From: Bacteroidales bacterium
GTDB taxonomy: Bacteria; Bacteroidota; Bacteroidia; Bacteroidales; GCA-2711565
Direction: 5' to 3'
Assembly (NCBI GenBank): GCA_963675215.1
Contig: OY775914.1
Coordinates: forward strand, 3,339,181-3,403,180
DNA length: 64,000 bases
The notes beneath the pieces are model-generated. The model ran no database searches. It was not told where the DNA came from and saw only the letters and a program-made list of their open reading frames with translations. Positions 3,698-61,143 of this stretch are shown here, piece by piece (the first letter of the stretch is position 1; each line of letters opens with the position of its first letter). The position numbers and the translations under genes were made by a program.

Positions 3698-5905
3698 ATG
3701 TCAGAAAAAAAAATCTACCCCGTATTAGGAATGTCTTGTGCATCCTGTGCTTCCAGTGTTGAGAGCATGCTCACTGTGCAGCCGGGTGTGATTTCTGCCA
3801 GTGTCAATTATGCCAACGGCGAAGTTTACATTGAATTTGACAAAAAACTGGCTAATCTCACTGAGATGCAGGAAGCCATTAAAAAGATAGGCTACGAAAT
3901 CATTATTGAGACCAAAGAACCCGAAAAGATTGTCGAAGAAAAGGAGAAAGAGCGATTCATTACGCTCCGGAAAAAACTAATTCTGGCCATTTTTCTAACC
4001 TTACCCATTTTTGTGGTCTCCATGTTTATGATGCCTTTGGCTCAGGCGGATAAATGGGTATTATTAGCATTGAGTATTCCGGTATTGTTTTATTGCGGTT
4101 CCGAATTCTTTATCAATGCATTTAATCAGGCACGGCGCAGATCAACAAACATGGACACCTTGGTTGCTCTGGGAACCGGAGTGGCTTTTATTTACAGTGC
4201 AATTGTAACCATATTCCCTTATTATTTTTTGAATCATGGCTTACCAACCCATGTTTATTTTGAATCTGCCACCGTCATTATTTCCTTCATTTTATTTGGA
4301 AGGTTTCTTGAAGAACGAGCAATAAAAAGAGCGTCTTCTGCTATTCATAAGCTAATGAACCTGCAACCAAAAAAATTAAATGTACTCCGAAACAATCAGG
4401 AAATGCAAATTGCGATTAAAGACGTACTCATTAATGATATCGTGCTTATTAAGCCCGGAGAAAAAATTCCGGTAGATGGAATTGTAGAAAGTGGAGAAAG
4501 TTATGTTAACGAGAGCATGATTAATGGTGAGCCAATCGCACTTCGTAAAACAACAAATGCAAAAGTTTTTGCAGGAACCATTAATCAGAAAGGAAGTTTG
4601 ACAATTATTGCTGAGAAAATTGGAAAAGAAACGCTGTTATCTCAGATCATTGACATGGTGAAAGAAGCCCAAAGGGTTAAACCTCCCATACAAAAACTAG
4701 CAGATAAAATTGCCAGCATCTTCGTTCCTATAGTATTGGCAATTTCACTTTTGACTTTTGGACTTTGGTATTTTTTAGGCCCTGAGCCGAGTGCCACTTA
4801 TGCTTTTGTTACCACCGTTGCAGTACTAATTATTGCGTGCCCTTGTGCTCTGGGATTAGCAACGCCAACAGCATTAATGGTTGGAATTGGAAAAGGTGCA
4901 CAGCATGGCATTCTTATTAAAAATGCTGAAAGCCTTGAAATGGCATACAAAGCAAACACGCTGTGCATCGACAAAACAGGAACACTAACGGAAGGAAAAC
5001 CGAAGGTTAGCGATCAATACTGGATACAGGATAATCCATACTTTAAATTGATTTTAATTGAAATGGAGAAAAAATCTGAGCATCCATTGGCTGGAGCCAT
5101 TGTGGCCGGAATTAAAACTTCGGATAATAAAATCCTCACGTTTGAAAATTTCCAGAACCATCCAGGTTATGGTGTGAGCGCAAGAATAGAAGGGATAAAT
5201 TATTACGTTGGACGATTTGATTTCATTAAAGAAAAAGAAATTCAGATTGAGGCAGCAGCAAAAGCAAAAATAGATCATTGGCAAAGCGAAGCCAAAACAC
5301 TGGTACTGTTTTCAGACGAAAAAAGAATATTGGCTGTAGTAGCAATAACCGATCTGCTTAAGGAAGGAACCCCATTTGCCATTAAAAAGCTAAAACAAAT
5401 GGGCATCGAAACCATTATGCTAACAGGAGATAATGAGAATTCAGCCAGAGCGATTGCAAAGCAATCAGGAATTGAAAAATTTCATGCAGGGATGATGCCT
5501 CAAGAAAAAGTTAAGATCATCAAAGAACTTCAGGCAGAAGGTAAAATTGTTGCCATGGCTGGAGACGGGATTAATGATTCTGCCGCATTGGCTCAGGCAG
5601 ATATTGGAATTGCCATGGCAAGTGGTTCAGACATTGCCCTTGAAAGTGCCGGAATTACCCTGATGAAATCAGATTTAAGCCATTTAATTGGAGCCATTAA
5701 ACTTTCGTTTGCAACGGTAAAAACCATCAAGCAAAACTTGTTCTGGGCTTTCTTTTATAATATCATCGCCATTCCTATTGCTGCCGGAATACTTTACCCA
5801 TTCACCGGATTTTTACTCAACCCCATGATTGCCGGAGCTGCCATGGCCATGAGCTCTGTTACCGTAGTAGCAAATAGTTTAAGATTACGAAAAGTGAGGT
5901 TATAA
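3698..5905 (+). CDS. copA: heavy-metal (Cu(I)-type) translocating P1B-type ATPase
   Basis: N-terminal HMA 'GMSCASCASSVE', TM 'CPC', 'DKTGTLT', 'GDGINDS'. The 'YN' (TM7) and 'MSSVTVVANS' (TM8) residues match the Cu(I) subclass. Confidence 0.9.
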   Translation: MSEKKIYPVLGMSCASCASSVESMLTVQPGVISASVNYANGEVYIEFDKKLANLTEMQEAIKKIGYEIIIETKEPEKIVEEKEKERFITLRKKLILAIFLTLPIFVVSMFMMPLAQADKWVLLALSIPVLFYCGSEFFINAFNQARRRSTNMDTLVALGTGVAFIYSAIVTIFPYYFLNHGLPTHVYFESATVIISFILFGRFLEERAIKRASSAIHKLMNLQPKKLNVLRNNQEMQIAIKDVLINDIVLIKPGEKIPVDGIVESGESYVNESMINGEPIALRKTTNAKVFAGTINQKGSLTIIAEKIGKETLLSQIIDMVKEAQRVKPPIQKLADKIASIFVPIVLAISLLTFGLWYFLGPEPSATYAFVTTVAVLIIACPCALGLATPTALMVGIGKGAQHGILIKNAESLEMAYKANTLCIDKTGTLTEGKPKVSDQYWIQDNPYFKLILIEMEKKSEHPLAGAIVAGIKTSDNKILTFENFQNHPGYGVSARIEGINYYVGRFDFIKEKEIQIEAAAKAKIDHWQSEAKTLVLFSDEKRILAVVAITDLLKEGTPFAIKKLKQMGIETIMLTGDNENSARAIAKQSGIEKFHAGMMPQEKVKIIKELQAEGKIVAMAGDGINDSAALAQADIGIAMASGSDIALESAGITLMKSDLSHLIGAIKLSFATVKTIKQNLFWAFFYNIIAIPIAAGILYPFTGFLLNPMIAGAAMAMSSVTVVANSLRLRKVRL

Positions 5906-6010
5906 GTGATTATTGGTTATTAGTTATTAGTTATTAGTTATTGGTGATCAGTTATTAGTTGTCAGTTAAAGATTCTTTATTCTAATTTTTAACTTCTGTT
6001 TTCTTACTAT
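5906..6010. repeat. heptad-periodic tract (TTAGTTA-type) starting at the base after the copA stop
   Basis: gtgatta|ttggtta|ttagtta|ttagtta|ttagtta|ttggtga|tcagtta|ttagttg|tcagtta, then the ..TTC-ending heptads aagattc|tttattc|taatttt|taacttc|tgttttc. Confidence 0.8.
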
Positions 6011-6200
6011 GATATCATTTTTCTTGTAACTTTTATCATGTGTCTATCGTCTTGATTCCGAATTCTCCTTTTCATCTATACATCATTAAATTATTTTTCC
6101 ATCATCTTAACCTTTAATCTTCTGACACGAATAAAGCCAGAACCGCTTCACATTTTTTAACAAATTAGCAACTAAACAAATCATCTCATTACCAAAAAAA

Positions 6201-6395
6201 ATCCATATCTTTAATCCTGAAATTCTTCCCGTCCGGATAGCAGCTGTTGAATAAGAATTCCAAATTCCCCGTAATTTAAAAATTGTTGTCGTTTTACTTT
6301 TAATCGACAAAATATATGATAATATAGAACCTGTGCAACACATCCCAACCTGTCCACCTATAGAGGATTTGGATGTTATTGGCTAAGAAACGTAA
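6201..6395 (+). repeat. conserved intergenic core, copy X (paralogous to 50711..50875)
   Basis: By-eye alignment: 'TATCTTTAATCCTGAAATTCTTCC..TGTTGAATAAGAATTCCAAATTCCCCGTAATTTA..TTAATCGACAAAATATATGATAAT' versus 'TATCTTTATTCCTGAAATTCTTCC..TGTTGATTAGAATTTCAAACTCCCCATTTATTGA..TTAATCGAAAAAATATATAATTGC'. Weaker similarity continues to a GTTA(T/C) site. Confidence 0.7.
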
Positions 6396-6444
6396 ACATA
6401 TTATTAGCCAGCAATAATTAATAACCTAATTTAAAGGACATCAA

Positions 6445-7671
6445 ATGAATAGATTATTCTTTTTAGTACTTATGGGATTTTCATATTTTTTAAATGCACA
6501 AACAGCACAAGAATTTCCTGTATTGAAAGGAGAATATTTAGGACAAAAACCAGCCGATACAATCCCGAAAATATTTGCCAAAGACATTGTTTCTGATCCT
6601 AGCTGGTATGAACATTGTCAGCTTGCAATATCCCCAAAGGGTGATGAAATTTTTTGGTCCGCATTTTCAAGGGAATACCCCCTTCCTGATGGAAAAGGTA
6701 ATACTGAACAGATATATTATTCGAAAATAGAAAATGAAAAATGGACAAAACCAGCTTTAGCTGAATTTGTTACTGATTATTTAACATATGGGAATGGATC
6801 TCCTGTATTTTCACCAGATGGTAATGGACTATATTTTAATTCAACCAGAACGGGTGGCTTAGGAAGAACTGATGTTTGGTATGTGAAAAGAGAGAATGAA
6901 AAATGGAGTATGCCAGTAAATATAGGTGCACCCGTTAATACTGAAAATGATAATTGGTCCCCATCATTTTCTAATCATGAAACGGCTTATCGCATGGATG
7001 ATTATCAAGATAATTCAGATAATAAACCAATTCGTTTTGTATATCGAAATAACAAGTTTATGGATTCTTCCGTCGTAAAAATTCACCCCGAATTCTATCC
7101 CTGGTATTCTTTTTGCGTATCACCAGAAGAAGATTACATGATTTTTTCCGGTTATCATTATCTTGGTGTTGGTGTACTTGACTTGTATATTTGTTATAAA
7201 GATGAGCAGGGTAGTTGGGGCTATCCGATTATGATGAGAGATCAAATAAACACAGAAACAGTAGAAAGATTTCCTGTAGTTTCTCCTGACGGGAAGTTTC
7301 TTTTTTTCGTTCGACAAGTAGATACGCATAACTTTTATTGGGTATCAACTAAGATACTTGATAAGTATAGAAGTGAAAGTTTAGAAAAAATGAAGAACAC
7401 TCCCCTTTTTAAAGATCTAGAATTAAAAGCTGAAGAAATTGAACAATACCTTGGAGTTTATTCTCCCGTTGATTTGCCTTTTAAATTTACTATAAGCAGT
7501 GAAGAAAATAAATTAAAAATAAGAATGGGTAACTCAACTTATCCATTAGAATGTTATGGTAAAAACAAATTTAAATATGATAAACGGATGATAAAGATAG
7601 AATTCTTTCCAGATGAGAATAGAATGTTTTTTCAATCCGGAATTGAAAAAATAGATTTTCTAAAATTATAA
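6445..7671 (+). CDS. secreted PD40/TolB-like beta-propeller repeat protein
   Basis: Signal peptide MNRLFFLVLMGFSYFLNAQ. Repeated 'SP(K/D)G..(I/L)(F/Y)' blades ('SPKGDEIFW', 'SPDGNGLYFNSTR', 'SPDGKFLFFVR'). Confidence 0.75.
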   Translation: MNRLFFLVLMGFSYFLNAQTAQEFPVLKGEYLGQKPADTIPKIFAKDIVSDPSWYEHCQLAISPKGDEIFWSAFSREYPLPDGKGNTEQIYYSKIENEKWTKPALAEFVTDYLTYGNGSPVFSPDGNGLYFNSTRTGGLGRTDVWYVKRENEKWSMPVNIGAPVNTENDNWSPSFSNHETAYRMDDYQDNSDNKPIRFVYRNNKFMDSSVVKIHPEFYPWYSFCVSPEEDYMIFSGYHYLGVGVLDLYICYKDEQGSWGYPIMMRDQINTETVERFPVVSPDGKFLFFVRQVDTHNFYWVSTKILDKYRSESLEKMKNTPLFKDLELKAEEIEQYLGVYSPVDLPFKFTISSEENKLKIRMGNSTYPLECYGKNKFKYDKRMIKIEFFPDENRMFFQSGIEKIDFLKL

Positions 7672-7696
7672 TTTAAAGGTAGAATTTGCTCAAATG

Positions 7697-7842
7697 ACTT
7701 TCACTAACACCTGTAAATAAAATATGGCAAATCCGTACTCGGCTGAGAAGTAGGCAATTCGTTAACACCTTCCTTTCCGTCGGAAAGAAAAATACTCCGA
7801 AATATTGCAACGTTCCATAGCCTAAAGCTTAGTGCGTTAAGC
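7697..7842 (+). repeat. full-length structured intergenic element A (attC-like imperfect dyad)
   Basis: Starts CACTAACACC..ATATGGCA and ends CCATAG..TTAGTGCGTTAAGC. Nested pairings: cactaa/ttagtg, tatgg/ccata, gcaat/attgc, and a central ctttcc-gtc-ggaaag hairpin. The right end GTTAAGC fits GTTRRRY. Confidence 0.6.
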
Positions 7843-7855
7843 AGAAAAACGAAAT

Positions 7856-8779
7856 ATGAAAGTTAAAAATCAAATTATTGTTTACGGCGGAACTGGCTTT
7901 TATGGACAAAAAGTAGTTGAAAAATTAGTTAAAAAAGGACAGCTTGTAAAAGTGGTTACCCGAAACTCTGAAAATGCTAAGAAAATATTTGGAGATAAAA
8001 TAGAACTATTTCAAGGAGATGTAACGGAAAAAGGAACTATTGAAAAGTCTTTAAAAAATGTTAGTGCTATTGTAATTTGTCTTTCGGCGATGAGTAATAA
8101 ACTGATCAGAAAAATGAAAGAAATTGAGCGTGATGCTGTTTTGGAAATCATGGAAGAAGCAAAAAAAGCGGATATTTCAAGATTAGTTTATATGTCGGGA
8201 TATGAAATGAGAAAACAACTTCTTGATGATTTAAAAATCCCAGAATTTGGAGAAATAAAAATAGAAGTTGAGGCAAAAATCAGACAATCAGATTTTAACT
8301 GGACCATATTAGGCGATGCCCCCGCATTTGAAATATTTTTTGCATTCACAAATAAAGGAAGAATGACGGTACCCGGAGGTGGGTTAAATGCATTTCCAAC
8401 TATATCACCAGAAGATGTTGGAGAGCTAACATCACAAATTGTAATGCGAACAGACTTAAACGGAAGAAGAATAAAATTAACAGGGCCGAAAGCCTATTCT
8501 TTTCCCGAAGTAGCAAAATTAATGTCCTACATAGGTGGAAAAAAAATCAAACATATGGCGATCCCTTTATTTATAATAAACGTGGTGTCATTTTTACTTT
8601 TACCATTTACACCTTTTGTTAGATATTTATATAAGAGTTTAAAAATGCTAAATAATTTTCCAGCAGATTTAGCAGAAAATGTTCCAGGAGATCACAAACT
8701 ATTAAGGGAATTATTTGATTATGAGCCAGTAACCTTGGAAATGGAGATTAATCGTAGAATAAACAATAATACATTATAA
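7856..8779 (+). CDS. NAD(P)H-binding NmrA/SDR-like oxidoreductase
   Basis: N-terminal Rossmann motif 'VYGGTGFYGQKVVEKLVKKGQLVKVVTRN'; 307 aa, an atypical-SDR length. Confidence 0.75.
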   Translation: MKVKNQIIVYGGTGFYGQKVVEKLVKKGQLVKVVTRNSENAKKIFGDKIELFQGDVTEKGTIEKSLKNVSAIVICLSAMSNKLIRKMKEIERDAVLEIMEEAKKADISRLVYMSGYEMRKQLLDDLKIPEFGEIKIEVEAKIRQSDFNWTILGDAPAFEIFFAFTNKGRMTVPGGGLNAFPTISPEDVGELTSQIVMRTDLNGRRIKLTGPKAYSFPEVAKLMSYIGGKKIKHMAIPLFIINVVSFLLLPFTPFVRYLYKSLKMLNNFPADLAENVPGDHKLLRELFDYEPVTLEMEINRRINNNTL

Positions 8780-8807
8780 AACATAGAAATGGAATAAGCT
8801 CATAATT

Positions 8808-9341
8808 ATGAAAAAAACTATTGTAATATTTTATTCAAATAAAGGAAGTAACAGATATTTAGCAAAAAGAATTTCAGAGAATCTGAACTGTGAAATTGAA
8901 GAAATCAAGCCTAAAATAGATGCTCATCTTTTTTTGCTGTTCGGATTAAGTTTCGGAAATAAAAAACCCAAAATAAACTTAGCAGCATACGATAGAGTTG
9001 TTTTGTGTGGACCCATTTGGATGGGTAAATTTATTGCTCCTTTAAAAGGGTTTGTAAAAAAACACATAAATAATATAAATGAATTGGTTTTTGCAACTTG
9101 TTGTGGAAGTAGTTTTGACATGAAAGATAAAAAATTCGGTCATGGACTTGTATTTAAAGAAATCAAAGAAATGCTAAAAGGTAAGTGCATACATTGTGAG
9201 GCTTTTCCAATTACTTTAGTAATCCCTGACGACAACAAAGAAAACCCTGATACGGTAATGAAAACACGACTTACAGATGATAATTTCAAAGGTGAAATAC
9301 TAAATAGATTTAATGATTTTATTAAAAAAATATCAGCTTGA
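8808..9341 (+). CDS. flavodoxin-like fold protein
   Basis: 177-aa ORF beginning 'KKTIVIFYSNKGSNRYLAKRI' (flavodoxin-type beta1-loop). The rest is not diagnostic. Confidence 0.5.
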   Translation: MKKTIVIFYSNKGSNRYLAKRISENLNCEIEEIKPKIDAHLFLLFGLSFGNKKPKINLAAYDRVVLCGPIWMGKFIAPLKGFVKKHINNINELVFATCCGSSFDMKDKKFGHGLVFKEIKEMLKGKCIHCEAFPITLVIPDDNKENPDTVMKTRLTDDNFKGEILNRFNDFIKKISA

Positions 9342-9367
9342 AAAAATATTAAAAATTTGTATTGAAA

Positions 9368-9424
9368 CTACGATAGCAAAACAGTAGCTATAAAACATGC
9401 AAATCTTTACTGGCTGAAACGTAG
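9368..9424 (+). repeat. left-half copy C of the structured element
   Basis: 'ctacgaTAGCAaaacagtagctataaaacATGCAAATCTTTACTGGCTGAAACGTAGG' aligns with the left half of A ('ATGGCAAATCCGTACTCGGCTGAGAAGTAGG'). It ends where the convergent LytTR gene terminates. Confidence 0.55.
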
Positions 9425-9436
9425 GAGGCGCGCTGA

Positions 9437-10183
9437 CTACTGATCCAACCAAGCCTTGAAATCAGCCACCCGCTCTCTGGCCACAATTATTTCTTCTTCA
9501 AGGCCTTGAATTTTTAATCGCAAGCGGCTGTTGGTCCAAGCCAACACATCAGCACAAGCGCGATGCGAAACGATGAATTTCCTGCTAATTTTAAAAAATA
9601 TTTCAGGGTTTACCAACTGTTCTATTTGTTCCAACGAATAATCGATCACATATGATCTTTGATCTTCGGTAAACAAAAAACTGGCTTTTGCCATGCTATA
9701 AAAAGCCAGAATTTTATCTGTTTCTATGCTTTTTATTTTATCTCCAACCTTAATCATAAACCTGTTTTTAAATGAAGGCATATTCAAGCTCGTCATTAAA
9801 CTTGCGATTTGCTCAATTGCCATCGGTTTTTGAATGGTTTTGAGCTTATCAAGGGCCTGTTTTAAGCGAGCTTCTTCGATTGGTTTTAATAAATAATCGA
9901 TGCCGTTGGTTTTAAAAGCTTCAATGGCGTATTGATCGTAGGCCGTTGTAAAGATAATGGGACAAAACAACTGATGCTTTTCAAAAATTTCAAAACTTAG
10001 ACCATCTGCTAACTGAATATCAGCAAACACCAACGAAACAGTATTATTTGCTCTAAAAAAAGCGATTGCATCCCGCACCGACTCAAAAACACCAATTATA
10101 CGCATCTCAGGAGCCAGCTTTTTTATCAACAATTCCAATCGATTTGCTGCTCTGTGTTCATCTTCCAATATCACTACATTCAT
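9437..10183 (-). CDS. LytR/AlgR-family response regulator (REC + LytTR DNA-binding domain)
   Basis: REC N-terminus 'MNVVILEDE..' with acceptor 'FADIQLADG'; the C-terminal ~100 aa are LytTR-like. Overlaps the upstream kinase gene by 4 nt. Confidence 0.9.
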   Translation of the reverse strand: MNVVILEDEHRAANRLELLIKKLAPEMRIIGVFESVRDAIAFFRANNTVSLVFADIQLADGLSFEIFEKHQLFCPIIFTTAYDQYAIEAFKTNGIDYLLKPIEEARLKQALDKLKTIQKPMAIEQIASLMTSLNMPSFKNRFMIKVGDKIKSIETDKILAFYSMAKASFLFTEDQRSYVIDYSLEQIEQLVNPEIFFKISRKFIVSHRACADVLAWTNSRLRLKIQGLEEEIIVARERVADFKAWLDQ

Positions 10184-50539: not shown

Positions 50540-50665
50540 CTGGTTGTTGGTTGTTGGTGATTAGTGACTGGTTCTGAATTTAGTAATCAGATTCTAACAA
50601 TCTATTTTTCTTTTTTCTTTTTTCTTTTTTCTACATTCTGCATTCTAACTTCTCATTTTCAAATT
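50540..50665. repeat. heptad-periodic tract (about 18 heptads) starting at the base after the stop codon
   Basis: ctggttg|ttggttg|ttggtga|ttagtga|ctggttc|tgaattt|agtaatc|agattct|aacaatc|tattttt|ctttttt|ctttttt|ctttttt|ctacatt|ctgcatt|ctaactt|ctcattt|tcaaatt. Confidence 0.85.
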
Positions 50666-50677
50666 AGCACATCATCA

Positions 50678-50705
50678 AACTTGCCTGTTGCAAGCAGGTT
50701 TTCAA
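50678..50705 (+). terminator. terminator-like hairpin
   Basis: aaacttgcctg-ttg-caagcaggttt imperfect stem followed by TTC. Confidence 0.45.
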
Positions 50706-50710
50706 ATTTA

Positions 50711-50875
50711 TTCCTTATCTTTATTCCTGAAATTCTTCCTGCCCTTGGGAAGTAATTGTTGATTAGAATTTCAAACTCCCCATTTATTGAATTTTTAGCT
50801 CGGTTTTAATTAATCGAAAAAATATATAATTGCACAAAAGCTAGCTAATACATGTCTATATAGGTGAATATAGTT
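50711..50875 (+). repeat. conserved intergenic core, copy Y (paralogous to 6201..6395)
   Basis: See copy X. Confidence 0.7.
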
Positions 50876-50953
50876 ACTAAAGATGCCCATATATAGTCGT
50901 TAGGTTTAATGCAAAAAAAGGGAACAAAAATTGACTACGTGTACTAATTTTTA

Positions 50954-50978: not shown

Positions 50979-52061
50979 ATGGGACAAAATGCACCATATC
51001 GGATTCTAGAAAAACTACCTCCCCCAAGAGAAAAAGTAGAAACAATCAAGATATTAAGAAATGTGAGCAAGGCAACTGCTGCATTGGCCGAATTAAAAGG
51101 TATTGCCAAAACAATCCCTAATCAGGCAATGTTGATTAATGCGATTGTTCTTCAAGAAGCAAAAGGCAGTTCAGAAATAGAGAACATCATCACGACACAA
51201 GATGAGCTATACAAAGCTTTGACTGTAAACAGATCAATCATTTCAGCAGGAACAAAAGAAGTAGTAAACTATAGAAAATCAATTTTTCAGGGGTTTGACT
51301 TGATTAAGAAACAAGGACTTTTAAAAGTAAACGATATTGTAAACATCCAACAAGAGTTAGTTGGAAACAATTCTGGTATAAGAAGTATGCCTGGAACCGT
51401 ACTTAAAAATGACACAACAGGAGAGATTGTTTACACTCCTCCTCAGGACAAACAAGAAATATTAGATTTACTTTCAAATTTCATTGATTACTACAACCAA
51501 AACAATCAGGAGTTATCACCTTTGATAAATCTTGCAATTTTGCACCATCAATTTGAGAGCATTCACCCATTTTATGACGGGAATGGAAGAACTGGTAGAA
51601 TATTGAACATTTTATACCTGATATTAAATGACTTGATAGATATACCAATATTATATCTCAGTTCGTATATCATAGAAAACAAGGCAGGTTATTACCGTTT
51701 ATTAAACCAAACAAATCGTCTGAATGAATGGGAAGAATGGATTTTATTCATGCTCAAGGCTGTTGAAGTCACATCCTTACAAACAATCGAAAAGATAAAT
51801 ACCATTAGACAATTATTAAATCAAACTATAGAAAAAGCACAGATTGATGCTCCTAAAATATATAAGAAAGAGTTGGTTGAATTGCTATTTGAACAACCTT
51901 ATTCAAAAATAGAATTCGTAGTAAACCTCTTAAGGGTCGAAAGAAAAGCAGCATCAAGATACCTAAAGGAGTTAGAGAGAATTGGAATCTTGGAATCTCA
52001 AATAGTTGGTCGAGAAACATTATACATTAATAAAGAACTGATTGAAATATTAAAAAAATAA
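50979..52061 (+). CDS. Fic-family protein (AMPylase-type) with an N-terminal inhibitory helix motif
   Basis: Fic motif 'HPFYDGNGRTGR'; upstream 'GSSEIEN' fits the (S/T)xxxE(G/N) auto-inhibition motif; C-terminal winged-helix-like tail. The ATG at 50979 is preferred to the TTG at 50931. Confidence 0.85.
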   Translation: MGQNAPYRILEKLPPPREKVETIKILRNVSKATAALAELKGIAKTIPNQAMLINAIVLQEAKGSSEIENIITTQDELYKALTVNRSIISAGTKEVVNYRKSIFQGFDLIKKQGLLKVNDIVNIQQELVGNNSGIRSMPGTVLKNDTTGEIVYTPPQDKQEILDLLSNFIDYYNQNNQELSPLINLAILHHQFESIHPFYDGNGRTGRILNILYLILNDLIDIPILYLSSYIIENKAGYYRLLNQTNRLNEWEEWILFMLKAVEVTSLQTIEKINTIRQLLNQTIEKAQIDAPKIYKKELVELLFEQPYSKIEFVVNLLRVERKAASRYLKELERIGILESQIVGRETLYINKELIEILKK

Positions 52062-52068
52062 TGCACTA

Positions 52069-52175
52069 AGCCCAACAAAAGCTATGGTTCATGGCGCTCA
52101 GACAGGTTACGAAATCTTAGGGTTTTCCTGCCTACGGCAGGCAGGTGCCACGTAACCATCGCAATACAGTTAGCG
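52069..52175 (+). repeat. full-length structured intergenic element D (attC-like imperfect dyad)
   Basis: GCCCAACAAAAGCTATGGTTCATGGCG....CCATCGCAATACAGTTAGCG. Nested pairings: aac/gtt, atggtt/aaccat, tggc/gcca, and a central cctgcc-tac-ggcagg hairpin. Starts 8 nt after the Fic stop. Confidence 0.6.
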
Positions 52176-52238
52176 GCAATGTAAAATTTAAACTCCTAGA
52201 AAAAGGAATATTTGTATTAAAAACCTAAACTCAAGATC

Positions 52239-52661
52239 ATGAAAACTTTAACCAAATTATTTTTGTCAGTTTTTATAATTAGTCTTACTTCTTGTAACCA
52301 TTTTAAAGATAAACCTGAATGTATTAACAAAGATAGCTTCTTTGACAATAATGATCCAATGACAGAAACATATCAGGAAAAAGTTAAAGAAGTTTTAAAA
52401 ATTACAACCCCTAATGATTTTAGATATTTTTTCGTAACATTTACTGGCGACAATAATGAATATCTAATGGTGAACATGAGAAACAATGAATATTGTTTTG
52501 ACGCAAAAATATTGGTAGAAAATTGGGATAAATTAGCAGGCATGAGAGAGAAAAAGGGGAGATCGTATCCCGAAGAATTACATAATTTAAAATGGAAATT
52601 AGAAAAATCTGGAGGAAGCGAAAATATAGTCTATCTAGACATGAACAAAATTATTGATTAA
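52239..52661 (+). CDS. small lipoprotein, unknown function
   Basis: Signal peptide plus lipobox 'ISLTSCNH'; 140 aa. Confidence 0.65.
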   Translation: MKTLTKLFLSVFIISLTSCNHFKDKPECINKDSFFDNNDPMTETYQEKVKEVLKITTPNDFRYFFVTFTGDNNEYLMVNMRNNEYCFDAKILVENWDKLAGMREKKGRSYPEELHNLKWKLEKSGGSENIVYLDMNKIID

Positions 52662-52663
52662 CA

Positions 52664-52720
52664 CTGCTGCTAACAAAGGCTCATAAAACATGGCTAATTC
52701 TTACTCAGCAGAAACGCATT
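52664..52720 (+). repeat. left-half copy B of the structured element
   Basis: 'ctgctgCTAACAAAGGCTCATAAAACATGGCTAATTCTTACTcagcagAAACGCAT'. ctgctg/cagcag can close a stem. Starts 3 nt after the stop codon. Confidence 0.55.
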
Positions 52721-57906: not shown

Positions 57907-60900
57907 ATGTCTCGCATTATAAATTTTATTTTATGCAGTCTTTTTCTGATTGCTACAGTACCTATAATAGCCCAAGAAAACCCACTTTGGCTCAGATATC
58001 CGGCCATCTCACCAGATGGACAAACCATACTTTTCAATTATCAGGGAGATATTTTTAAAGTATCGGCAAAAGGTGGAACTGCGGTTCCTCTAACAATTAG
58101 CGACACTTATGAGTATAATGCCGTTTGGAGTCGTGATGGTAAACAAGTAGCCTTCGCATCCGATCGTTTTGGAAATTTTGATGTTTTTGTAATGCCAATT
58201 GAAGGTGGAGAAGCAAAAAGATTAACCTTTCATTCCAGTAATGAAGTCCCCAGTGCTTTTACGCCCGATAATCAAAATATAATATTCGACGGATTAAGAC
58301 AGGACCTGCATTCGAATGTTCAGTTTCCTACAGGAACTTTAACTGAACTCTATAGCGTGCCTGTTAACGGAGGAAGAGTTACACAAATCCTAACCTCACC
58401 AGCCCTTGATGCAACATTTAGCCCGGATGGGAAAAAACTAATTTTTCATGATCGAAAAGGCTATGAAAACATCTGGAGAAAACATCATAAATCATCAGTA
58501 ACCAGAGATGTATGGGCTTATGATTTGAAAGACAAAAAATACACCCAACTTTCAACTTTTGAAGGTGAAGATCGAAATCCTGTTTTCGACAGCAACAATA
58601 ATGATTTTTACTATTTAACAGAAGAAAGCGGAACTTTTAATGTTCACAAAAGTTCGTTAAGCAATCCAGCATCTAACACTGCGATTACCAATTTCAAGAA
58701 AAACCCCGTACGATTTTTAACCAAAGCTTCTGATAATACCCTCTGTTTTGGTTATGACGGAGAAATTTACACCATGACTTTAAATGGGCAAGCGCAAAAA
58801 GTTAATATTCAGATTGCCTATGATGGTCGCAGTACACTGGATAAAATTGTGCCTGTTAATTCAAACCTAAGAGATGCCAGTCTTTCGCCAAACGGAAAAG
58901 AATTTGCATACACTTTCAGGGGTGAAATATTCGTCAGTAGTATTGAAGCAGGAACTACAAAACGTATTACCAATACACCCTGGCAGGAACGAAGTGTAAG
59001 TTTTAGTCCTGATGGTAAATCATTGGTTTACGCAGCCGAGGTCGAAAACAGCTGGAATATTTATACAACTTCGATTGTCAGAGATGAGGAGCCCTATTTT
59101 TATATGTCTACCTTATTAAAACAAGAAACCATTATTGCAAGCCCCAGAGAAGAATTCCAGCCAGCCTATTCACCCGATGGTAAAGAAATTGCTTATTTGG
59201 AGGATCGAACCACTTTAAAAGTAATCAACCTGGCCAGCAAAAAAACCAGAACAATTATGGGGGCAGAACACAATTACTCCTATGCTGATGGAGATCAATG
59301 GTATCAATGGTCGCCCGACAGCAAGTGGTTCCTTGTCGAATTTGGTCAGCCTGAAGCCGTGATGAGCGGAGAAGTTGGATTGGTAGATGCAGCCGGAAGC
59401 GGAAAAATTATCAACCTTTCTCAAAGTGGTTACGGTGATGGTGCTCCTAAATGGGCCATGGATGGACAGATGATGATTTGGTATTCTACCCGTGAAGGAA
59501 CCAAATCGGAAAATGATCGAATCGCTTTTGGAGACGTTTATGGAATGTTTTTTACACAAGAAGGCTTCGACAGATTTAATTTATCAAAAGAAGAATTAGC
59601 CTTACTCGAAGAAATTGAGAAAAAGGACAAAAAGAATGAGAAGGATGATAAATCAAAAGATGACGAGAAAAAAGATGAAAAGAAAATTGAAGATCTTAAA
59701 ATTGATTGGGAAAACTTAAGAGACAGAAAACAGAAACTCACAGTAAACACGTCAAGTCTCGGAGATTATGTGCTTTCAAAAGATGGGGATAAACTATTCT
59801 ATTTTACCAGATTTGAAGGCCGGAATGATTTATGGGTAACTGACCTTCAAAGCAAAGAAGCCAAATTATTTACCAAAATAGGTGCAAATAGAACAAGCAT
59901 GGACCTTTCGAAAGATGGTAAGTTTTTATTGGTGATGGCTGATGGCAAACCAAGAAAAATAAATACTTCGGATGGGAAATCAAAATCGATCCAAACCAAA
60001 GGTGAAATGCTTCTGCAACAAGCGGATGAACGCGCATACATATTTGATCATAGCTGGCGACAAGTGCGCGAAAAGTTTTACGTAAAAGATTTGCAGGGTG
60101 TTGACTGGGATTATTATTATACACAATACAAAAAATTCTTACCTTTTATCAATAACGGTTATGACTTTGCAGAGATGCTTAGTGAAATGCTTGGTGAATT
60201 GAACGCTTCTCATACCGGTGGCAGTTATCGTTTCAGGGCGCAAAATGCCGACCAAACGGCCTCTTTAGGTTTATTATACGACTATGCACATACCGGCAAT
60301 GGCTTAAAAGTCGCTGAAGTTATCAAAGGCGGCCCACTCAACAAGGCTAAATCAAAAATTAAAGCAAACGATATTATCGAAAAGATAGATGGCATCGCCT
60401 TAACAACATCCATCGATTTTTATCAACTCCTGAATAGAAAAGCAGGTGATAATGTGCTGTTATCTATGTTTAACCCAAATACAAACAATCGTTGGGAAGA
60501 AGTTGTTAAACCCATTTCAACGGGTATGGAAAACCAACTACTTTATATAAGATGGGTTGAAACCCGAAGAGCTGAGGTTGAAAAATTATCGAAAGGGAAA
60601 TTGGGCTACGTGCATGTTCGTGGAATGAATGATGCAAGCATGAGAACTGTTTTCGAAGATGCACTCGGAAAACATTTATCAGCAGATGCACTCATTGTGG
60701 ATACCAGATTTAATGGCGGTGGAAACTTACACGATCAGCTTTCTGATTTCTTAACAGGGAAAAAATACATGGATATTATTCCTCACGGACAATATGTTGG
60801 ACATCAACCAGGAAATCGATGGATTAAGCCTTCTATTGTCATCATGGGAGAAAGTAATTATTCTGATGCCCACCTTTTCCCTGTGGCTTATAAAATTAAA

Positions 60901-61143
60901 GGAGGTGGAAAAACACTTGGTATGCCGGTACCCGGAACAGGTACTTTTGTTTGGTGGGAAAATCAAATTGACCCAACCATTACTTTCGGAATTCCGATGG
61001 GAGGATGGAGACCAATAGGTGAGCCATTCCTTGAGAATCATCAGATGGAACCAGACATCATGGTTCGGAATGAAGCAGGAATAATGGCCATTGGGCGTGA
61101 CCAACAAATTGAAGAAGCAGTTAAAGAATTATTGAAAAAATAA
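57907..61143 (+). CDS. tricorn protease homologue, second paralogue (PD40 + PDZ + S41)
   Basis: Signal peptide; 'SPDG(Q/K)' blades; C-terminal 'DTRFNGGGNLHDQL'. Same architecture as 34772..38056. Confidence 0.85.
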   Translation: MSRIINFILCSLFLIATVPIIAQENPLWLRYPAISPDGQTILFNYQGDIFKVSAKGGTAVPLTISDTYEYNAVWSRDGKQVAFASDRFGNFDVFVMPIEGGEAKRLTFHSSNEVPSAFTPDNQNIIFDGLRQDLHSNVQFPTGTLTELYSVPVNGGRVTQILTSPALDATFSPDGKKLIFHDRKGYENIWRKHHKSSVTRDVWAYDLKDKKYTQLSTFEGEDRNPVFDSNNNDFYYLTEESGTFNVHKSSLSNPASNTAITNFKKNPVRFLTKASDNTLCFGYDGEIYTMTLNGQAQKVNIQIAYDGRSTLDKIVPVNSNLRDASLSPNGKEFAYTFRGEIFVSSIEAGTTKRITNTPWQERSVSFSPDGKSLVYAAEVENSWNIYTTSIVRDEEPYFYMSTLLKQETIIASPREEFQPAYSPDGKEIAYLEDRTTLKVINLASKKTRTIMGAEHNYSYADGDQWYQWSPDSKWFLVEFGQPEAVMSGEVGLVDAAGSGKIINLSQSGYGDGAPKWAMDGQMMIWYSTREGTKSENDRIAFGDVYGMFFTQEGFDRFNLSKEELALLEEIEKKDKKNEKDDKSKDDEKKDEKKIEDLKIDWENLRDRKQKLTVNTSSLGDYVLSKDGDKLFYFTRFEGRNDLWVTDLQSKEAKLFTKIGANRTSMDLSKDGKFLLVMADGKPRKINTSDGKSKSIQTKGEMLLQQADERAYIFDHSWRQVREKFYVKDLQGVDWDYYYTQYKKFLPFINNGYDFAEMLSEMLGELNASHTGGSYRFRAQNADQTASLGLLYDYAHTGNGLKVAEVIKGGPLNKAKSKIKANDIIEKIDGIALTTSIDFYQLLNRKAGDNVLLSMFNPNTNNRWEEVVKPISTGMENQLLYIRWVETRRAEVEKLSKGKLGYVHVRGMNDASMRTVFEDALGKHLSADALIVDTRFNGGGNLHDQLSDFLTGKKYMDIIPHGQYVGHQPGNRWIKPSIVIMGESNYSDAHLFPVAYKIKGGGKTLGMPVPGTGTFVWWENQIDPTITFGIPMGGWRPIGEPFLENHQMEPDIMVRNEAGIMAIGRDQQIEEAVKELLKK

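Follow-up and report, generated by a model that had tools for sequence, protein, structure and literature searches.

The conserved element in the gap behind copA is most probably a copy of a chromosomal integron-like platform from which the recombinase gene has been deleted, and each copy of this element (X) would dock and express gene cassettes through an integrase acting in trans. This explanation starts from what can be observed, namely the colinearity of X with the flanks of the integrase gene, its copy number, its position at the head of cassette arrays, an insertion relative to a related genome and the recurrence of the arrangement in other families; from these we infer the docking and expression role, the action of the integrase in trans and the activity of the promoter. 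The window is the whole stretch of DNA that was analysed, 64,000 nucleotides from the 4.05-Mb chromosome of a Bacteroidales bacterium (G000); the other G-numbers denote relatives and other sampled genomes. Two copies lie in the window, X1 behind copA (about 6161-6407) and X2 (50634-50905).

Copies of X and their anatomy

In the preliminary description 6201-6395 had been aligned by eye with 50711-50875 at roughly three-quarters identity. BLASTN against the whole genome found these two segments to be 74% identical over 119 nt (E=1e-11), nhmmer detected X1 with X2 and vice versa (E=8e-8 and 3.5e-8), and a global MAFFT alignment over the whole of both gaps gave a mean column identity of 71%, all in agreement with the estimate. 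When nhmmer searches of G000 were iterated until convergence, about 22 copies were obtained, spread over the entire chromosome and all intergenic, which argues against a simple segmental duplication with only two copies. Twenty of the 22 are co-oriented with the upstream gene; the downstream ORFs that were found all have the orientation of the copy. Some copies consist of the left half or the right half only. Frame-breaking indels between copies, and the location of the called ORFs on opposite strands, indicate that X is non-coding and that conservation is at the nucleotide level, as had been proposed.

Two models were built for searching other genomes: R1, a covariance model of the left part of X, and R2, a sequence model of the attI-like module described below, with which 36 genomes were checked. 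E-values from these and our other models, which were given a short calibration, are rough. In six of the twelve other genomes of the genus R1 detected 5-16 copies, and in two further ones a single copy. G003, G005, G008, G009 and G012 gave no match, nor did 28 other families of the order. In a tree, 34 copies did not group by genome, and a few of them were recent duplicates within a genome. Since the copies do not cluster by genome, the X lineages predate speciation within the genus, and concerted evolution can be ruled out.

The modules of X are arranged in the order U (TTTTCAAATTAGCACATCATCAAATT), -7 promoter box (TATCTTTA), hairpin A, CTCCCC, hairpin B, TGAAATATA(T)AA and a right-hand module of ~85 nt ending in ...ATATA-CTAGTT. 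In the alignment, hairpin A consists of GAAATTCTT, about 28 nt and AAGAATTTC, and is followed by the invariant CTCCCC, whereas hairpin B reads TCGATT...AATCGA. The consensus of the Bacteroidota -7 promoter element is TAnnTTTG; the box that is conserved here fits TAnnTTTR. Features of the X1 locus are the following (window coordinates):

3698-5905, plus strand: copA, heavy-metal P-type ATPase (Pfam E1-E2_ATPase, Hydrolase, HMA), outside the element
5906-5969, plus strand: heptad tract (GTTATTA)n, a 3' feature of copA
6063-6086, plus strand: weaker copy of U (alignment of about 22 copies)
6161-6193, plus strand: module U, CAAATTAGCAACTAAACAAATCATCTCATTACC, a conserved segment in front of the promoter box (alignment of about 22 copies)
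6206-6213, plus strand: predicted -7 box TATCTTTA, pointing rightward, 7/8 match to TAnnTTTG, kept in alignments
6219-6270, plus strand: hairpin A (GAAATTCTT ... AAGAATTCC) and TTCCCC box (CTCCCC in most copies)
6288-6308, plus strand: hairpin B (GTCG...CGAC), standing in place of the integrase ORF
6309-6319, plus strand: probably what is left of the integrase 3' end with its stop codon, AAAATATATGA, compare GAAATATAA (profile alignment)
6320-6407, plus strand: attI-like module, colinear with the integrase-adjacent site (R2 match 6310-6401, 29.5 bits)
6445-7671, plus strand: gene of a PD40 beta-propeller protein (Pfam), cassette-like
7697-7842, and truncated at about 9380-9436: attC-like sites of the X1 array (nhmmer)
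7856-8779, plus strand: gene of an NmrA-like protein (Pfam), cassette-like
8808-9341, plus strand: gene of a flavodoxin-like protein (Pfam), cassette-like

The corresponding features at X2 are:

50634-50905, plus strand: X2 (R1 120.7 bits, R2 56 bits)
50634-50680, plus strand: TCTRAC repeats and U
50715-50723, plus strand: predicted -7 box
50729-50772, plus strand: hairpin A
50776-50781, plus strand: CTCCCC
50800-50817, plus strand: hairpin B
50817-50829, plus strand: apparent integrase-end remnant
50830-50905, plus strand: attI-like module with intact core CGTT/AGGT (50898-50905)
50979-52061, plus strand: SoFic gene (Pfam)
52062-52176 and about 52660-52720: attC-like sites, with a small gene between them

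The short block of similarity that had been noticed further upstream is real and corresponds to a weak copy of U, which is common to many copies of X. The drop of similarity had been placed just after a GTTAT (6378) in X1 and a GTTAC (50867) in X2. Both positions are internal to the attI-like module, and a junction there would be ~30 bp too early: the homology of the family continues as far as about 6407 in X1, and in X2 it reaches the core at 50898-50905. The attI-like module of X1 contains an insertion of ~23 nt (6344-6367) shared by a subfamily of copies, and its crossover core is mutated, reading ATTATTAG/CC at 6400-6409 instead of ACTAG/TT, with loss of the GTT. With its GTT core lost and the last attC-like site of its array truncated, X1 is probably a fossil copy; X2, which kept the core, looks intact.

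The heptads had been described as part of the module. A period-7 tract was found within 400 nt upstream in only 7 of the 22 copies, and there are about 310 such tracts in the genome. Moreover, heptads stand behind copA not only in G002 and G004 but also in G007, where X is absent, therefore they belong to the 3' region of copA. The gene itself is conserved in five relatives (72-81% nucleotide identity), the homology ending at or just after the stop codon. Tandem repeats with a period of 6-12 are very common in this genome (2131 tracts were reported by TRF at low thresholds), and many are located just after stop codons, those at 5906-5969 and 50540-50575 of the window being examples. A run of TCTTGWA heptads, ~250 nt long, follows copA in G002 (locus L076).

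Conservation of the hairpins was evaluated in 34 copies from 8 genomes. The covariation score was above those of all 500 shuffles and of all slid controls. In hairpin A 96% of the cells were paired and three pairs had compensatory changes; in hairpin B the values were 81% and four pairs, making seven such pairs together, and every wobble was a G.U on the plus strand. The folding energy of the leader was unexceptional relative to shuffled sequence (z-scores between -0.95 and 0.29, both strands), thus it is the pattern of conserved pairing that speaks for the hairpins. They may function as RNA structures, in single-stranded DNA or as dyads to which proteins bind. The Bacteroidota LexA-type operators GGA-N5-TCC and CTAA-N5-TTAG (PMC8565304) were not found in 22 extended copies. 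Rfam 15 gave no match in the window at gathering scores, and allowing E-values up to 10 at the two loci produced chance-level matches only. The best sub-threshold match, Bacteroides-1 (22.4 bits compared to a gathering score of 43, E=0.16; 50846-50914, minus strand), covers the attI-like module of X2 and is probably due to chance.

Partial copies occur in several settings. At genome positions 650912, 1703037 and 2451273 left-half-only copies, comprising promoter box, hairpin A and CTCCCC, are found upstream of unrelated genes, which encode, respectively, an XRE-type HTH protein, a secreted protein of 690 aa and a protein of 248 aa; promoter and leader may thus also be used independently of the rest of X. 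Two right-half-only copies are arranged in tandem, 1 kb apart, on the minus strand at 1718304-1719424 with a single gene, that of a 178-aa lipoprotein, between them, and look as if the attI-like unit itself were repeated like a cassette boundary. A comparable tandem pair of partial copies was seen in G011 (locus L046).

The integrase locus and the cassette arrays

A scan with the integron-integrase model detected a single recombinase of this type in G000. It is a Xer/IntI-like tyrosine recombinase of 383 aa encoded on the minus strand (genome 2628583..2627432), 0.72-0.76 Mb from X1 and X2, and its gene adjoins a partial copy of X. This is the only place in G000 where the platform is complete (genome 2627354-2628700, minus strand), with -7 promoter box, leader hairpin, CTCCCC, the recombinase gene and an attI-like site ending in ...ACTAG/TT following each other in this order. 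The 5' flank of the integrase gene, consisting of U, -7 box, hairpin A and CTCCCC, matches X on the left side, and the last codons together with the 3' flank (...GAAATATAA-AATACAAGAAAACATGTACAATACACGCGTATTTGGATGTTATTGTGCAAGAAACGTGTACATATATACTAGTT) match its right-hand module; a few hundred bases beyond this there is an attC-like site. The attI-like site behind the integrase contains two direct repeats (CAAGAAAC-TGTRCAWATA).

This relationship is not limited to G000. The same -7 box is present upstream of the integrase gene in G000, G004, G007 and G011, and in G000 and G004 the box is separated from the start codon by hairpin A and CTCCCC; the integrase leaders of G007 and G011 lack hairpin A. 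The profile of X aligns across the joined flanks of the integrase gene with 67.9 bits in G000 (a rough E=1.6e-21) and with 32 bits in G004, the last integrase codons and the stop codon falling on the segment TGAAATATA(T)AA. In all four species the 3' flanks of the orthologous integrase genes match positions 127-187 of the X model, and a conserved site of ~85 nt is found behind the integrase stop codon in G000, G004, G007, G011, G138, G061 and G101. When ten X copies and six integrase-adjacent sites were aligned in one register (alignment A3), the sequences diverged immediately after AGTT; the AGTT core is mutated in four of the ten aligned G000 copies, X1 included. The attI-like site adjoins the integrase at the head of the array, and the limits of homology place the presumed crossover at G/TT. 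A left-end recombination site was not recognised: CAAGTTATCCAAT is present upstream of the integrase gene in G000 and G138, but not in G004, G011 and G061.

The colinearity of both halves of X with the integrase flanks identifies X as the platform without its gene. Comparison with attI regions had been suggested earlier, and the right half of X is indeed colinear with the site directly behind the only integron-type recombinase of the genome. The same colinearity supports the view of a nucleotide-level element that ends at a recombination junction and heads cassette-like arrays. Taken as a whole, the preliminary description was borne out in the similarity and its attI-type interpretation, while a copy number of two, the heptads as a component and the position of the junction had to be abandoned.

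Another integrase-less copy was found at genome position 1314718. It has a perfect -7 box (TATATTTG), TTTCTCCCC, the last nine codons of the integrase and an attI-like site with three differences from that beside the integrase. The second-largest array begins behind this copy, and its locus is the one where G011 keeps an intact integrase. As judged from its sequence, it is a second, independent deletion copy, which makes the description of X as a platform without its gene explicit. Hairpin B is absent from this copy and from the integrase locus. The complete platform occupies a different locus in each of the four species, and platforms are always located just 3' of a gene, usually a conserved one, with which they are co-oriented. 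The integrase-bearing platform of G007 is located immediately behind the ortholog of the 1078-aa gene at window positions 57907-61143, where nothing comparable is present in G000.

Searches with three repeat classes seeded from the attC-like elements of the window (nhmmer and inspection by eye) yielded 146 merged attC-like matches in G000. They fall into three sequence classes, lie between small co-oriented ORFs and have ends resembling GCCCAAC...GTTAGCG or CTAAC...GTTAAGC. Most of them (109) form a main cluster of 72 kb (2556169-2626932), which starts directly behind the integrase gene on the same (minus) strand. About 30 of the 109 are opposite-strand echoes of the same dyads, and the integrase heads about 100 attC-like sites. 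A second array of about 9 cassettes (1310423-1314235) is located behind the integrase-less attI at 1314718-1314804. Nearly all other multi-site clusters have an X or attI-like site upstream on the same strand; the clusters headed in this way are those at X1, X2, 1292818, 1314718, 2682614, 3135999, 3450066, 3517230 and 8559. Most copies that retain the attI-like part are followed by same-strand cassettes with attC-like sites, and downstream of 4 of the 14 attI-like sites of G000 no attC-like site was detected. Arrays that follow X copies are short: 0-2 sites were detected in them, as opposed to about 100 behind the integrase. The accessory genes and attC-like repeats that had been described behind X1 and X2 are present behind both and co-oriented, and both loci have at least two attC-like sites with no integrase within a few kb, as in CALINs. 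Paralogous cassettes were also considered for fixing the exact cassette boundary; the sole paralog found is inside a two-gene cassette and was uninformative.

The copA locus permits a comparison with a related genome in which the element is absent. In G007 only about 165 bp separate copA from a convergent lytTR response-regulator gene orthologous to that at 9437-10183 of the window. In G000 the same interval, block 5906-9436, accommodates X1 and three cassettes in 3.5 kb. This array ends with a truncated attC-like site that abuts the stop codon of the convergent lytTR gene, so that the distal boundary of the array falls exactly at a core gene. A platform stands behind copA in G002 and G004, too, followed by different genes, and is missing from this place in G011.

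The recombinase contains the Pfam domains Phage_integrase and Phage_int_SAM_4, and the catalytic residues (R, K, HxxR, H, Y) can all be read in its sequence. Its best NCBIfam model was XerA_Arch ('site-specific tyrosine recombinase/integron integrase') with 192.7 bits, below the cut-off of 220; the integron-integrase model TIGR02249 gave 178.5 bits against a cut-off of 265 and left positions 182-238 unmatched. Alignment with the VchIntIA structure (2A3V) was split at the IntI-specific insert, about 40 aa remaining without a counterpart. In these two comparisons the additional domain specific for IntI was not found, and the action of the enzyme on folded attC-like sites is therefore putative. 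At its N-terminus the recombinase has an extension of about 105 aa.

Homologs with 35-56% identity are encoded by 49 of the 151 sampled genomes of the order, mostly in single copy. The recombinase and the attI-like sites occur together: G000, G002, G004, G007 and G011 have one integrase ortholog and 12-15 attI-like sites each according to R2 (14 in G000), and G003 and G009, which lack an integrase ortholog, have one and zero, respectively, and no X as detected by R1. G003 carries at least six near-identical copies of a different tyrosine recombinase (loci L061 and L072, frames of 300-332 aa), which suggests another family of mobile elements. In other families, R2 found 9 attI-like sites for one integrase in G101 and two in each of G138 and G061, i.e. 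one extra copy in each of the latter. In G101 and G061 the additional sites still contain 45-200 nt from the 3' coding end of the integrase (about 50 nt in G061), and their sequences diverge right after GAGTT or AAGTT. Integrase-less attI copies with apparent remnants of the integrase 3' end are thus found in two other families as well.

Origin and present role of the copies

According to the explanation that we prefer, the recombinase ORF has been lost except for its last few codons; hairpin B stands in its place, so that promoter and leader abut the attI-like site. The single integrase would insert attC-bearing cassette circles in trans at the AG/TT core of the X copies, and the predicted promoter, which X has retained, would transcribe the inserted cassettes. 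If the integrase-less copies (about 14 to 22 per genome) still work, one enzyme would serve many docking sites.

A possible, though in our judgement unlikely, alternative is that the X copies are inert fossils of duplicated or relocated platforms whose integrase has decayed, with no present role in capture or expression. The mutated core of X1 and the truncation of its last attC-like site against the lytTR stop codon would fit such a state, and so would the copies reduced to a left or right half and the shortness of the arrays behind X in comparison with the one behind the integrase. Against this reading, the -7 box, CTCCCC and both hairpins are kept across 34 copies from 8 genomes, with compensatory changes in the stems, and the X lineages are older than speciation within the genus. 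It also speaks against inertness that the copA platform is common to G000, G002 and G004 and yet has different genes behind it in each, and that the second array, of about 9 cassettes, stands behind an integrase-less attI.

It is rather doubtful that X moves as a non-autonomous element of its own, comparable to a MITE or a cassette, which the integrase would excise and reinsert in trans and which would seed new arrays. The deletion structure characterised by hairpin B occurs at many different loci, both within and between genomes, and the complete platform is at a different locus in each species, as would be expected of a mobile unit. Homology between recent duplicates starts exactly at the -7 box. 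In G004 they have only ~195 nt in common, bounded by the -7 box and the attI core; in G006 the shared stretch is ~340 nt long and ends at the core. These limits could equally reflect a mobile unit or gene conversion between existing copies, and neither terminal inverted repeats, nor target duplications, nor a recombination site at the left end were recognised. With MITEs and similar deletion derivatives X has in common that a single coding master is accompanied by many short gene-less copies keeping both flanks, and that the distribution within the genus is patchy; it differs from them in lacking terminal inverted repeats, target-site duplication and a transposase, its ends being a predicted promoter and a recombination site.

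That X is a structured cis-regulatory RNA or a small RNA gene unrelated to recombination appears very improbable. The conserved pairing in the two hairpins, the G.U wobbles, all on the plus strand, and the promoter-like box just upstream are what one would look for in such an RNA. Against it stand the negative Rfam searches, the fold z-scores near 0, the mutual unrelatedness of the downstream genes and the lack of hairpin A in the integrase leaders of G007 and G011; the integrase flanks account for both halves of X. Finally, the terminal repeat of an IS element or MITE can be dismissed, because X is not bounded by inverted repeats, no target duplication was seen at its boundaries, and the related coding copy is a tyrosine recombinase, not a transposase.

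Relation to known integron systems

The deleted-platform explanation puts X next to the attI and Pc platform of integrons (class 1 attI1, the Vibrio superintegron). In both cases a site beside a tyrosine recombinase heads a co-oriented cassette array, the site contains direct repeats, and homology ends at a G/TT-type core. The predicted promoter would likewise read into the cassettes, and these seem to end in imperfect dyads with ...AAC / GTTRRRY-like ends. In contrast to integrons, the recombinase described here is co-oriented with the cassettes, has no IntI-specific domain, matches XerA-type proteins best and is extended by ~105 aa at its N-terminus; each genome has 12-15 or more copies of the platform, only one of them with the gene, and there is no LexA-type box. 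Ghaly and co-workers reportedly described archaeal integrons with XerA-related integrases in 2022. The likeness to these consists in the recombinase scoring best against the XerA_Arch model, and the lineage studied here is bacterial (Bacteroidota).

Integrons of Bacteroidetes were represented in the IntegronFinder 2.0 survey only by In0 elements and a single complete integron, that of Salinibacter ruber, and, apart from those of class 1 integrons, attI sites have been described only poorly (PMC9024848). The definition of CALINs is based solely on attC sites (PMC9024848), and among the origins proposed for them is the loss of intI by deletion (PMC8618304). X1 and X2 resemble CALINs in heading short attC-like runs with no integrase nearby. 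Unlike in CALINs, almost every satellite array here begins with the same deletion derivative of the platform, conserved across species and at many loci. In the part of the literature that was covered, recurrent, conserved, multi-copy heads made of attI plus promoter were not found described.

The origin of CALINs is debated. Almost all satellite clusters of this genome start with the same attI-like site, a predicted promoter and a scar of the integrase gene, and would thus offer a direct and testable route from integron to CALIN; they also suggest that many docking sites on the chromosome may be served by a single recombinase. The domain by which integron integrases are defined and detected is missing from this recombinase family, which nevertheless has homologs in 49 of the 151 sampled genomes; standard tools should therefore fail to recognise such systems as complete integrons, or report CALINs only.

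A more far-reaching and less probable interpretation, which we put forward tentatively, is that of a distributed integron: one Xer-like recombinase without the IntI domain would serve at least a dozen dispersed, self-propagating, promoter-bearing docking sites at the 3' ends of core genes, X being mobilised in trans and seeding new arrays. If true, this would provide a concrete origin for integrase-less cassette clusters and would add to the integron-type elements a new class, represented in about a third of the genera sampled in this Bacteroidota order.
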